Source: a virus
Lineage: Duplodnaviria > Heunggongvirae > Uroviricota > Caudoviricetes
Strand: one strand, 5' to 3'
Length of the DNA stretch: 64,000 bases
Virus record (IMG/VR): IMGVR_UViG_3300021399_000107
Coordinates: 29,173 to 93,172 of that record
The notes under the pieces: generated by a model
Seen by the model: the letters and a program-made list of their open reading frames with translations, nothing else
The model's database searches: none
Told to the model about the DNA's origin: nothing
In this document: piece by piece, positions 15 to 61,952 of the stretch
How positions within the stretch are numbered: position 1 is the first letter of the stretch
How the letters are laid out: the number at the start of each line of letters is the position of its first letter
Translations under genes and position numbers: made by a program

Positions 15-272
15 ATGGTGTACTATGGAAAGAAAGGGTGGCATCCAAAATGGCACACCGAGCCGCAAGATAGCATCGACTTTATGATGCGCGACATCCA
101 GTCCTACTTGCGGCGGCTTGTGCAAAACGAAGGCAACATCGCCGAGCAAGTAGAGGACAGGAAACAACGCTACAACCTAAATGAACGTTTAGAAGACCTT
201 CCGTCCGAATCGGATAGCGACACTACTGTTGAATACGAAGACGAAGCCGCCTTTGACGAGGAGGTGCGCTAA
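15..272 (+). CDS. Hypothetical protein upstream of terL (probably 5'-truncated by the window edge)
   Basis: Frame is open back to position 3 (IGEL-MVYY...); acidic C-terminus; stop overlaps the terL ATG (TAATG), which indicates translational coupling. Confidence 0.6.
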   Translation: MVYYGKKGWHPKWHTEPQDSIDFMMRDIQSYLRRLVQNEGNIAEQVEDRKQRYNLNERLEDLPSESDSDTTVEYEDEAAFDEEVR

Positions 273-3200
273 TGGAGGGGGAGGTAGCGTATAGGGATAA
301 TATTCCCATTGAAAAAGGGGTAGTGCTGACGAGGGAGTTCTTGGATGCCAATCAGGAGCTCTTCACTAATTACCTCAACTATTGGCTTTTGTATCCTGAC
401 CTTTTGTTGGATGCGATAAAGCAAGCACACGATAATTTCAATCTTTTGCCCTTTCAGCGGATTGACAAAGCAGTCCCCTTTCTTAGTAATAAGGGAGCGT
501 AAAGATGCTTAATTGCTGGGAAGTTTTAAAGCCGGTTTTTCGGATGTGGCGCAAGCTTAAATAAACAATCAGCAGCCAATGGTGCGCCATTGGTTCAACG
601 ACTAGTTCTCAGAACGTAGCTTCAAAAGAAGCGAAACAGCATCCATCCATGTCTCACATGGATGAAGATATAGTCTAAACTATATAGATATATATAGATT
701 AATAATATGTGCATTACGGGCAAACATGCGTTACCGTTACAGTAGCCAAACATCAACGCGCGCAACATCCAAATCATTCATTGCTTACCTTAGCTCCTTT
801 TTGCGCGCCATGTTGCTACCAAATTCTAACATTATGATTTCTTCTGATGTGAAGGGCACAGTAGTACAAATTGCCGAAGCAAAATTCAACGAAATTTTCA
901 ATCACTGGCCCTTATTGCGCAACGAGCTAAAGACTCAAGCGGATGACGGTAAGAAAGGTGAGAAAGCCAGTAAAGATTACTATGAACTTCACCTCAAAAA
1001 TGGCAGCAACATTACAGTTGTATCGAAAGATAAAAGTAGAGGCTTGCGCGCCACTGCAATGGTGCATGAGGAAAGCGCGCTAATAGACCAATACAACTAC
1101 ACGGAAGTACTGCTGCCGCAGATGAATATCAAGCGGCGCGAAGTGGATGGTACATTGAATCCAGAGGAGCCATCCAGTCCTCAAATCTTTATCACCACCG
1201 CTGCGCCAAAAACGACATTCATGTATGGCAAACTTATTGAAATGGTTGTGGACGAGGTATTGCGGCCTGACGAGGTATTTGTTTGGGGTTAAGTTAGCCC
1301 CGCTTACCAGTAATGGTAAGGCAATCAGCATCTTAAAAGCTGGGAAATCCTAAAGATATTTATGCTTATAATAGCCGCGAAAGCAGAAACAAATAAATAT
1401 ATGGCGCAATGGAGTAATCCTAATGCGCCCTTAGAATGGACAATCAGCACCAGAGGTAAAATATGAGCCGAGCATTTAATATAGAACAGGTAGAAATGAA
1501 TATTAAAAAAATTTTTCCTGATTGGAATTTTAAAGTATTAACATATACACGTTCTGATCAGCCATTTACTATTCAATGCTTACAATGTAATACTATAAAA
1601 ACTTATCAACAATTTAGTCATTTAAGTCATAAAAAGAATCCTTGTATATGTAACTCTACTTCTAGCCAATATAAGTCGATACAGCAAATTAATGAATTAA
1701 AAAAATTTTTTGCTGATTCTGAACAATTTTCTGTAATAGAATGGACTACTACAAAAGATGCTAAAAAGAAACCTATGGTTCACATTCTTTGTAATTTATG
1801 TGGGCAAAGTTTTACTAAACGTACTAGTATTTTCTATAACAAAAGAGAGTGCCCATATTGTAAAGGAAAAATGCCATTAAATCAAGGTTGGTTAGAACAA
1901 CGTGTGAAGGCCAAAGGTTATACATTACTAAGTGAATTTACGGGATCTTTTAATGATGTATTTTTAAGGCACGATAAGTGCGGGTATATATGGAGAATTA
2001 AGCCATATAGATTTAGTAAAGAATTAGACGGCGATTGCCCTAATTGTAATAATGCTATTTCAAAAGGTGAACGCCGCATTTTAGAGTTTTTACAAGAAAA
2101 AAATATTAAGTTTTTTCATGAATATAAATTTTTATGGCAATCTCATCCTTTATATAGATATGATTTTTTTCTACCTGACTATAATCTTATTATTGAATAT
2201 AATGGAATACAACATTATGAAACAACTTCTTTTTTACATTTATCTTTAGAAGAAAACATCGAACATGATAGAATCAAAAGAGAAGAAGCTTTAAATAATG
2301 GATATAATTATTTAGTTATTCCATATACGAAATATAATGCTATCGCTCAAATCTTAACTGCATGGTTCAACGACTATCTTGATTCAAGAGTAGATAATAA
2401 GCTAATGATTATCGAAAGAGATGCTACCTCTTTTCAAGGGGTAAAAATATAGTCTCATCTTTATAGAAATATAAAGGATATTAAAATTTGCGATTTTAAT
2501 TTAAGAAAATGTCAACTTACGAAATGCCCCTCCACTACGGTCTAATTGACAAAGCAACTATTTTGGATCAACGTTATTCTACTACTATGGACGAAGACTC
2601 GTTCGCAAGGGAGTCGTTGTCAATTTGGACTGGCGGCTCACGCGAAGCGTGGCTCGACAATAAACAACTTTTGCGCCATCGTAATCTCCTAAAATGCGAG
2701 CGCAAGGCGCAAGTAAATCCAACGAATAAAGACACGTTTTATATGATTGGGGTAAAATTACATCTGCCCCGCCATCTGGTAACAGATGGGCAATAAACTC
2801 TTTAAAAGCTGGGAACTCCATTTGGACAATCAGCACCTATTAGGTTCAACGACTATTCCGTAAGGAAGTAAGCTATAAACTATTGATAGCTGAAAGAAGA
2901 GTTGTCTCTTTTATGAGATAAAAATATAGTCTTATCTATATAGAAATATATAGCAGTTTAATTAAACGCATATGAAGTAGTGCATCATATGGAAAATAAT
3001 AAGGGATGTTGCGAGGTATAGCGCAAACACCGCAATCATGGTAATTAAAGTATTACCATCTGAGGATGGTTTCCGTAAAAACGTGGTTTATACCGAAGTC
3101 ATTCATGGCGCTAATTACATTACCGAACAAGCGCCACGTTTAAAAAAATTGATACAATTGTATAATCCAAGGGAGATTGTAATTGATGGAAACGGGCGGA

Positions 3201-60683: not shown

Positions 60684-60708
60684 AAAAAAGAGCCTTATTC
60701 AGGCTCTT
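60684..60708 (-). terminator. Terminator after AAA NTPase gene
   Basis: AAGAGCCT-GAATA-AGGCTCTT followed by a T tract on the minus strand. Confidence 0.7.
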
Positions 60709-61952
60709 GTAAGTGTCTTTAGTTCTTCCGAGAAAGCTTCTACAAGCTCGCCCTGTGAAGGAACGGCCGCGCTTAGCTTAAATTCAGATGAACCAAAAAT
60801 GCGTGAGATAATGTCTCGCATAATATTTAAACGTTGATCCTTTTCTTCGTCTGATTGCGCGCCTTCGAGATATGCAACCCAAAGACCCTTGGCTTCATCC
60901 ATAATCTCTTGGAAGCTGCGCTCTTGTAGCAGTTCCTGATGCTCGGCATGATCTACGACCACCGCGCCACCGATACTTTGTTCCTTCTCGATTGCGCGGC
61001 CGATAGCATCAACAAGCTCATTGTAACCAAATGGGATGCGCTCATCAAGATAGCGCCAACGACTACCAGCAAAAATTGTTGGAGTTTGACGAGTATAAAG
61101 CCAACGCTGGGCCTTATTGTTAGCATCAAATTCAACATTGATAAAGGCAATTAGGTCACAAATGGCATTACATACGGTATAGATATTCTTGCTTAGATCA
61201 GGTTCAACGCTTGTGATAGCATTGCCTTCCGAATCAGTATACGGTGACGCCTTTTCCTTACTATGGCAAATAAGGATGAGACCATATCCCATAATGGTGA
61301 TTTCACGAAGAGCTTCTTGTAGCTCCTTCGCTACTAACTTCCACCCTTGCAATTGTTATCTTATAGGCTTTTTATCCTATAATTCTTATATTTTCATATA
61401 AGTTCAGCATATCTTTTCATCCATCTTACTGGATGCCTAGTCTCGTGAGACTTTATATCATTAAAAATGTTTACTAGTCTTATGCGTTGCGGCTGGCTAG
61501 TTTTTTACCACTAACCTTCACCTCTGATTCCCTTAGTTAGGGTTCCAGTTTTTTACTAGGTGTTTCAATAATCTTTACAGATTAAAGCGGCCAAGCGGAC
61601 CGTATGGCACAAGGTTTATCTTTTCCACACCTTCGCGCGCACAAATGTACTTTTCGCAAAGGTCAGCAAGAATAGAGATAGTATCTACAGTTACCGTATC
61701 ATAGAGTTCATGAGCTCGCGGGTCTTTTAGCTCCTTAATGACGTTACGAAAATCAGTCCACTTTAGGATTGGTAGAGCGGTAATACCGCCAATGGCATGA
61801 TAACCAATTTCCGTAGCGAGAATTAGATTCTTGGGAAGCTGTGCGGCAAATGATGTTTTACCAACCTTAGGCTTCGAGTAAATCAGTATATACTTCCCAG
61901 ACAGCGACTTATCAATCACTGTTGGCTTGATATCAAAAATACTGAGCGCCAT
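60699..61952 (-). CDS. AAA_24/Sak4-like P-loop NTPase (putative recombination protein), split by 1 group I intron; spliced 334 aa
   Basis: Exons 61952-61599 and 61349-60699; join LVPYG|QGWKLV; YSKPKVGKT Walker A, VTVDT Walker B, LICHSK, AGSR. Confidence 0.8.
61350..61598 (-). ncRNA. Group I intron 21 (AAA NTPase), ORF-less, 249 nt, divergent P7
   Basis: P1 CGGT/GCCG; P10 CAAG/CTTG; AAAACTGGAA, AATCAGAGG; R CAACGCATA, S GATATGCTG; terminal G. Confidence 0.85.

Follow-up and report, generated by a model that had tools for sequence, protein, structure and literature searches.

Twenty-one predicted group I introns in nine essential genes within 64 kb of a gut phage genome

Phage T4 carries three group I introns in 169 kb (td, nrdB and nrdD/sunY), which are of subgroup IA2 and are accompanied by GIY-YIG or HNH endonucleases, and SPbeta has introns in bnrdE/bnrdF. 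Twort and the Bacillus Bastillevirinae hold a handful of group I introns per genome (PMC11878797), and up to 14 introns have been counted in crAss-like phages of the Zeta group, in which one major capsid gene lies in five pieces (PMC7886860). For the Jug phages, of 360–402 kb, the mean is 18.5 group I introns per genome; terL, nrdD and polymerase genes are hit, and metatranscriptome reads back 37 of 76 introns (PMC12880540). Here we describe a 64,000-nt stretch of DNA from a sheep or cattle rumen phage (the window), bases 29,173–93,172 of the 165,344-bp IMG/VR virus record IMGVR_UViG_3300021399_000107, which was judged 96% complete. Nine of its genes are interrupted at 21 positions by what, judged from their sequence, are genuine group I introns. 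We consider it very likely that these are 21 self-splicing introns, that repeated homing built up the load, and that it is nearly neutral.

The introns resemble those of T4 in ribozyme class, in the P7.1/P7.2 hairpins, in a GACUA/UAGUC P7 and in the AAGAUAUAGUC element. As in T4, endonuclease open reading frames (ORFs) sit in peripheral loops, conserved codons of nucleotide-metabolism genes including nrdD are hit, and spread would be by homing. Unlike in T4, 21 introns are packed into 64 kb (at least 23 into 165 kb), terminase, tube, neck-like and tape-measure genes are interrupted as well, two-thirds of the introns are ORF-less, and two have C–G splice sites. Several introns per gene, and insertion into replication or nucleotide-metabolism genes, are shared with Twort, the Bastillevirinae and SPbeta, all phages of Firmicutes; unlike in these, three genes here hold four introns each, with exons of only 33, 53 and 91 nt between ribozymes. 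The Zeta-group phages belong to a different order (podovirus-like, with PolA/PolB) and combine alternative genetic codes with inteins (PMC7886860), whereas we saw neither intein nor recoding here, and intron count and density are higher. The Jug phages, too, come from the gut and have many group I introns within essential genes (terL, nrdD, DNA polymerase). Their intron density, taken from the mean, is ∼5 per 100 kb, as against ∼14 overall and 33 in the window for the present phage; nearly all Jug members are intron-rich, whereas our 165-kb genome belongs to an unrelated, SPbeta-like lineage with 0–3 introns in its other members. Density is thus two to three times higher than in known intron-rich gut phages, in a different lineage and in an outlier within its own family. 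With the Jug figure being an average, this is the densest group I intron set that we found reported for a phage. The original prediction, made from the DNA alone, had used three introns in T4 and about five in Twort as its benchmark, which the Zeta-group and Jug counts render outdated.

The interruptions were mapped against G002, a relative with a 184,104-bp record bounded by terminal repeats, which has no match to the Rfam group I model RF00028 and in which all nine genes are single ORFs. Searching the window with the G002 ORFs by tblastn gave collinear, abutting segments with exactly 21 breaks: four each in the terL, tube and tape-measure genes, three in DnaE, two in RecJ, and one each in the neck-like, AAA ATPase, DnaB helicase and NrdD genes. 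Genes and counts are identical to those originally predicted, and among the genes common to G002 and the window none beyond these nine is broken. Domain profiles were likewise split with abutting coordinates: phrog_15503 (26–77 and 78–214), phrog_24618 (1–52 and 50–229), and the Pfam profiles AAA_24 (3–95 and 100–195), DNA_pol3_alpha (8–102 and 102–252, with the finger and HHH domains in further pieces) and NRDD (2–414 and 415–562). The DHH and OB domains of RecJ lie on separate pieces.

For each break, every in-frame, stop-free join was enumerated and the joined peptide scored against G002; a terminal G was required when picking among equal junctions. All nine spliced coding sequences are in frame with no internal stop, as predicted, and their lengths are near those of the G002 orthologues: 591 aa for TerL (592 in G002), 590 for RecJ (591), 334 for the AAA ATPase (335), 534 for the helicase (539), 773 for NrdD, 1,300 for DnaE, 323 for the tube protein and 430 for the neck-like protein. 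The chosen joins also restore residues that are invariant in alignments of 18 and 22 intron-less orthologues, namely Q-R-I at terL-1, D-G-N-G-P-G-I-G at terL-4 and P-S-T-F-E-M at tube-4. The best joins give a total intron length of 11,608 nt (about 11.5 kb had been estimated), or about 18% of the window; within the tube-gene locus, introns make up 74%. The anticipated G closes the intron at each of the 21 best junctions, which the four junctions validated in RNA confirm independently. The introns are listed below with the G002 residues flanking each break; the tube micro-exons were resolved separately, and R1 denotes a second covariance model described further on.

terL-1: 463–709, plus strand, 247 nt, no ORF; break 65/66; RF00028 91.6 bits; junction 462/710 keeps the invariant Q-R-I.
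terL-2: 1290–2511, plus strand, 1222 nt, HNH ORF 1463–2452 (phrog_559, E 5e-46); break 258/260; RF00028 29 bits (partial), R1 68.2 bits (non-training copy).
terL-3: 2754–3003, plus strand, 250 nt, no ORF; break 339/340; RF00028 48.9 bits.
terL-4: 3198–3449, plus strand, 252 nt, no ORF; break 403/405; RF00028 81.7 bits.
neck-1, in the YomX-like 'neck' gene: 10167–10468, plus strand, 302 nt, no ORF; break 155/156; RF00028 45.7 bits.
tube-1: 12599–12885, plus strand, 287 nt, no ORF, preceded by a 33-nt first exon; break 14/15; RF00028 76.5 bits; junction 12598/12886 set by homology.
tube-2: 13545–14626, plus strand, 1082 nt, GIY-YIG ORF 13630–14541 (GIY-YIG PHROG families); break 242/243; RF00028 30.7 bits, R1 39.1 bits.
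tube-3: 14718–15032, plus strand, 315 nt, no ORF; break 273/274, junction 14717/15033; RF00028 58.9 bits.
tube-4: 15086–16107, plus strand, 1022 nt, GIY-YIG ORF 15277–15984; break at about 291; RF00028 40.2 bits.
TMP-1, in the tape-measure gene: 19306–20499, plus strand, 1194 nt, HNH ORF 19434–20279 ahead of the ribozyme core in L1 (phrog_59, E 3e-69); break 561/562; RF00028 86.1 bits (20197–20452); candidate guide GCCUUGU at 20261.
TMP-2: 20602–21819, plus strand, 1218 nt, HNH ORF 20781–21722; break 598/596; RF00028 33.4 and 29.8 bits, R1 54.1 bits (non-training copy).
TMP-3: 22032–22301, plus strand, 270 nt, no ORF; break 666/666; the weakest case, with RF00028 16.4 bits (E 0.4) and R1 13.7 bits (E 0.44).
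TMP-4: 22558–23803, plus strand, 1246 nt, HNH ORF 22804–23664; break 751/752; RF00028 18.4 and 12 bits, R1 31.8 bits (E 2e-6); 8-bp P1 GCAACCGU/GCGGUUGC.
AAA-1, in the AAA_24 ATPase gene: 61350–61598, minus strand, 249 nt, no ORF; break 121/122; R1 24.7 bits (E 3e-4).
hel-1, in the DnaB-like helicase gene: 58638–58874, minus strand, 237 nt, no ORF; break 420/421, junction ambiguous by 1 nt; R1 37.6 bits (E 5e-8).
recJ-1: 56697–56957, minus strand, 261 nt, no ORF; break 72/74, cutting the DHH motif as D/CDVDG; RF00028 23.8 bits, R1 25.0 bits; P1 GUGGAU/GUCCAC.
recJ-2: 55356–55598, minus strand, 243 nt, no ORF; break 438/439; RF00028 39.5 bits.
dnaE-1: 53259–53491, minus strand, 233 nt, no ORF; break 465/457, splitting DNA_pol3_alpha; RF00028 48.8 bits; borders possibly 53249–53481, with a 6-bp P1 that includes U.G (UUGCCU/GGGCAA) and equal protein length either way.
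dnaE-2: 52516–52759, minus strand, 244 nt, no ORF; break 619/623; RF00028 57.8 bits.
dnaE-3: 51578–51846, minus strand, 269 nt, no ORF; break 856/850; R1 12.6 bits (E 0.86).
nrdD-1: 46144–47111, minus strand, 968 nt, HNH_3/NUMOD1 ORF 46308–46910 (matching Pfam HNH_3); break 663/664, splitting NRDD; R1 21.3 bits (E 0.003); P1 ACUCCU/GGGAGU.

RNA evidence was drawn from assembled contigs of two metatranscriptome runs (X4 and X14) of one sheep-gut sample over the stretch 4000–23999, which takes in nine introns, the other 12 lying outside; the source run X1 and an independent sheep-gut run, X2, provided DNA for comparison. The predicted joints occur base-exact in RNA contigs for four introns: 10166/10469 (neck-1, in X4 and X14), 12598/12886 (tube-1), 13544/14627 (tube-2, in X4 and X14) and 14717/15033 (tube-3, in X4). 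No mismatch to the window occurs in the contig that joins the tube-1 exons or in the X14 contig listed as ending at 13544. None of the four joints is present in DNA runs X1 and X2. Four exact joints of the group I type that are confined to RNA libraries are strong evidence that neck-1, tube-1, tube-2 and tube-3 are spliced in nature, and junction-spanning RNA was the test to which the original prediction had been tied. Among the joints listed there was none for tube-4 or for TMP-1 to TMP-4, and RNA cover was near zero over the tape-measure region. For the other 17 introns, we infer self-splicing. RNA levels cannot be read from contigs. In X4, summed contig depth peaks (54–79) over the tube-2/tube-3 intron region (14005–15338); this could reflect stable excised introns or endonuclease mRNA, contig depth not being safely interpretable.

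Metagenome assembly in a habitat where many related strains co-occur might have stitched one contig together from intron-bearing pieces of different strains. The DNA runs speak against this: a single 15.8-kb X1 contig over 8257–23999 includes nine introns and has no mismatch to the window, X2 contigs cross both intron–exon borders of TMP-2, and independent sheep-gut contigs span intron–exon borders with 0–3 mismatches. We regard an assembly artefact as barely conceivable.

The introns run 0–50 nt past the last hairpin of the RF00028 model (12–50 nt in most), and AAUG is the commonest ending (e.g. 698–709, 2954–3003, 14993–15032 and 20453–20499), so that junctions read off the ends of Rfam matches are wrong. 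Specifically, a terL-1 junction at 444/698, derived from the 'P1' of the covariance model, would delete the invariant Q-R-I; ending terL-2 at the final G of RF00028 places a stop codon directly after it; and for the tube gene the RNA contigs put the true 3′ splice sites 25–40 nt beyond the model end.

Membership of the RF00028 family was direct for 15 of the 21 introns and indirect for six. Six introns reached or exceeded the 50-bit gathering score, nine more matched at E ≤ 0.002, and TMP-3 and TMP-4 matched weakly (16–18 bits). The proposed Rfam check thus upheld most of the set and missed part of it: hel-1, AAA-1, dnaE-3 and nrdD-1 had no RF00028 match, also when small sub-regions were searched. 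These four were tied to positive copies through model R1 and blastn. R1 is a covariance model of 108 positions that covers the core from P7 to P9 and was built from 11 RF00028-positive copies; RNAalifold on a MAFFT alignment of the 11 cores recovered P7 only, because the peripheral stems are out of register, and R1 was therefore given P7 alone. When the window was scanned with R1 with filters off, all 21 introns were within the top 23 matches, and eight introns outside the training set (terL-2, TMP-2, tube-2, hel-1, TMP-4, recJ-1, AAA-1 and nrdD-1) scored at E ≤ 0.003. One further match (26024–26077; 17 bits, E 0.045) falls where the tape-measure frame runs uninterrupted and was dismissed as chance. 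By blastn, hel-1 matches dnaE-2 (E 7e-12), and dnaE-3 matches dnaE-2 (5e-8) and hel-1 (2e-6); despite its weak R1 score, dnaE-3 is clearly homologous to both. TMP-3, read directly, offers a 7-bp long-range P3 (CCUUCUC/GAGAAGG), P7 GACUA/UAGUC, P8 CACCUU/AAGGUG and the 3′ end AUAAUG.

The P/Q/R/S cores attributed to all the elements were recovered as a GACUA/UAGUC P7 in 19 introns and as a GCAU/AUGC variant in AAA-1; the P7 sequence of TMP-4 is atypical. In terL-4, P7 shows one compensatory C–G change. Between the P7 strands, about 13 introns (terL-1 to terL-4, neck-1, tube-3, TMP-1, TMP-2, dnaE-2, dnaE-3, recJ-2, hel-1 and nrdD-1) have P7.1, P7.2 and P8 hairpins with unrelated stem sequences and conserved GUA and GAAA linkers; this inner region is reduced in tube-1, tube-2, tube-4, TMP-3 and recJ-1. 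In the classification of Michel and Westhof, the P7.1/P7.2 layout marks subgroup IA, that of the T4 introns. The predicted placement of P7.1/P7.2 between P7 and the 3′ P3 strand thus assigns most of the 21 introns to this phage-typical subgroup.

Most introns have a P1 of 4–8 bp opposite a guide G, 7–14 nt into the intron; set against shuffled exons, no single P1 helix is significant on its own, and that of neck-1 is only 3 bp, though its junction is RNA-validated. The base at the 5′ splice site of group I introns is near-universally U, and C in other ribozymes slows the first step. Here, U stands opposite the guide G in 19 introns and C in two, terL-4 and tube-4, with the putative P1 helices CGGGC/GCCCG (3197/3198) and CUUCCAC/GUGGAAG (7 bp; 15085/15086) respectively. 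Only junction 3197/3450 regains the conserved DGNGPGIG of TerL, and only 15085/16108 the invariant P-S-T-F-E-M of the tube protein. U-site alternatives were rejected: both 3202/3452 for terL-4 and 15091/16108 for tube-4 insert residues into the invariant motif (two in the case of tube-4) and lack a P1. Two related contigs, L015 (at about 8609) and L044 (at about 738), have orthologous introns with the C and guide sequence of terL-4. Apparently, terL-4 and tube-4 splice after a C paired with the guide G.

Such features also bear on whether some insertions have ceased to splice, which would leave several genes dead and the phage defective or decaying. In favour of decay one may cite the weak covariance scores of TMP-3 and dnaE-3, the atypical P7 of TMP-4 and the C splice site of two introns. 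Yet the exons are all open and conserved, each of the nine frames is intact after splicing, two other phages keep the C splice site in orthologous introns, near-identical DNA occurs in samples of several studies, and structural-gene RNA is present; a decaying phage is in our view highly improbable.

The packaging and virion genes lie on the plus strand of the window, from ∼270 to 40,900, and the replication and nucleotide-metabolism genes on the minus strand, from 64,000 down to 40,950. When 49 kb of the window were compared by megablast with 50,697 phage records, two short intron-core matches and no relative emerged. A portal-protein search of IMG/VR retrieved at least 110 related contigs, from rumen samples, with portal identities of 55–70%; several are complete, at 163–188 kb. 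In 14 studies, gut or rumen runs of sheep, cattle and goats contain DNA close to the window. In the ESM-Atlas, the intron-less orthologues resemble large terminases, YomU-type tube proteins and YomX-type 'head closure knob' proteins, which, together with the DnaE-type polymerase, points to an SPbeta-like siphovirus. Pfam gave no match for the terminase, neck-like, tube and capsid pieces of the window, PDB sequences searched with a profile of the TerL alignment gave none either, and the intron-less TerL and tube orthologues yielded AlphaFold models unusable for searching (pLDDT 38.9 and 52.2). The names TerL, neck-like and tube are therefore putative and serve as leads only, based on gene order, PHROGs and the ESM-Atlas look-alikes. 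The tape measure (17302–33253, plus strand) is 4,007 aa long after splicing, and its G002 orthologue, which crosses the ends of its own record, apparently exceeds 5,000 aa; such lengths imply extremely long tails.

Seven of the 21 introns carry homing-endonuclease ORFs and 14 have none. Four of the enzymes are HNH (phrog_559 in terL-2 and TMP-2, phrog_59 in TMP-1 and TMP-4), one is HNH_3/NUMOD1 and two are GIY-YIG; TMP-1 has its ORF in the P1 loop, the other six introns in the P6 loop. Within a type, the endonucleases are only 33–40% identical, and no near-identical intron copies were seen, the one point for which we used a pairwise identity matrix that is inflated by cheap gaps. Together these observations argue against one recent burst and in favour of separate acquisitions. 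The endonuclease ORFs of terL-2, tube-2 and TMP-2 reach into the ribozyme core at P7–P8 (2367–2454, 14521–14541 and 21676–21722), so that coding and catalytic RNA sequences overlap. Free-standing ORFs resembling intron-encoded GIY-YIG/HNH endonucleases also exist, at 43409–44377 (minus strand) in the window and at 163660–164670, 145643–146377 and 111211–111696 in the intron-less G002. The 3′ core of tube-3 (14957–15030) has 91% identity with a 74-nt stretch of Yersinia phage phiR1-37, and 39 nt match a Bacillus phage at 100% identity, so this intron core is widely shared.

RF00028 has 16 matches in this genome and 0–2 in each of 15 related records of 133–188 kb; as the original prediction of an exceptional load had presupposed, similar loads are not routine among relatives. 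Collinearity with G002 showed TerL to be interrupted in 11 of 75 relatives and the neck-like gene in one of 46; for the tube gene the figure was none of 37, all tube sites being empty there. R1 found 18 cores in 12 of 80 loci of relatives (1.18 Mb), the other 68 being without. The window's sites at TerL 258, 339 and 403 and at neck 155 are each occupied in one to about six relatives, the rest having them empty. The introns in these positions are orthologous to those of the window, with 76–81% identity: the terL-2 site holds such introns in L061 and L050, terL-3 is ∼80% identical to both halves of ∼1270-nt introns in L053, L034, L029 and L002, and the neck-1 site has a 1008-nt intron in L034. 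At TerL 339, TerL 403 and neck 155 the relatives' introns are 560–1,000 nt longer than the ORF-less copies of the window, a pattern expected of the homing cycle, in which invasion is followed by loss of the endonuclease. Further TerL sites (43, 79, 188 and 294) are used by other relatives. One related contig of 5.8 kb (L021:278–2737) has four group I cores in terL, at sites partly unlike those of the window, so heavy loading may extend to at least one more genome among the relatives.

The genome as a whole has at least 23 group I introns, two of them beyond the window. One, of ∼1,030 nt, at genome positions 145132–146161 (minus strand), splits a homologue of G002 ORF 67506–68312; the other, at 138748–139047 (minus strand), is a 55-bit RF00028 match in a region without G002 homologue.

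How the load arose and persists may be pictured as follows. The introns sit at highly conserved codons of nine essential genes, which serve packaging, virion structure and replication; after transcription, each ribozyme would pair the last exon bases with its internal guide (P1), the intron would be cut out and the exons joined, restoring the full-length proteins. The introns most likely accrued through repeated homing during co-infections, from a pool of mobile introns circulating within the phage family, and many copies would subsequently have lost their endonuclease genes. They would persist if splicing is good enough for near-neutrality and precise loss at the DNA level is rare. We infer both the acquisition by homing and the neutrality, the latter being an assumption. 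Several points weigh against this account, besides that assumption. Splicing was seen for four of the 21 introns only, and solely in assembled contigs from RNA libraries, in which an otherwise identical intron-less DNA strain could be a contaminant, although this is unlikely. TMP-3 and dnaE-3 score weakly under both covariance models, and the 5′ splice site of two introns has a C where U is near-universal. Finally, the account gives no reason for there being 10 to 20 times more introns in this genome than in 15 related genomes.

The original prediction had suggested that the insertions could ward off rival-phage homing endonucleases or CRISPR spacers. That site occupancy shields the targets of homing endonucleases is a plausible, standard consequence of introns, and one may ask whether the load itself is adaptive. 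Occupied sites would resist cognate endonucleases while the seven retained ones cut intron-less relatives, so that the genome and its flanking markers win mixed infections. Relatives from the same habitat do have endonuclease-bearing orthologues where the introns of the window are ORF-less (TerL 339 and 403, neck 155), the at least 110 contigs from rumen samples make co-infection plausible, and in jumbo phages an intron endonuclease mediates interference competition (PMC11620839). However, purely selfish homing predicts an identical pattern, and most relatives thrive with the sites empty; an adaptive load is possible, though we consider it unlikely. A stronger version, which we find doubtful and less probable still, casts the genome as the winner of an intron arms race, with occupied sites as immunity and endonucleases as weapons. 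Here the tolerance of C–G splice sites and of 33–91-nt exons would imply ordered or cooperative splicing and, if true, a splicing-order constraint of a kind not described for phage introns.

The original prediction had gone further, proposing that splicing could serve as a global checkpoint through which replication and assembly depend on GTP, Mg2+ or temperature. All nine genes are essential, early and late modules are both hit, and conditional splicing has been proposed as a possible role of phage group I introns (PMC11878797). Nevertheless, related phages have these sites empty and still express the genes, the introns fall into several unrelated sequence families that were separately acquired, and no shared regulatory element was seen among them. 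The checkpoint found no support and seems to us very improbable. Repeated homing followed by near-neutral persistence is the reading that we prefer.

The present genome extends a known phenomenon and leaves the general picture unchanged, intron-crowded gut phages having been described since 2021. It comes with exact junctions, some of them validated in RNA, where automatic annotators miss every intron and call TerL, tube, DnaE and other proteins as fragments, and its two natural C–G 5′ splice sites are material for ribozyme biochemistry. For the phage family, a hyper-loaded genome amid almost intron-free relatives provides a natural system for the accumulation of selfish introns, and the same contrast lends itself to the study of endonuclease loss and of intron tolerance in highly expressed structural genes.

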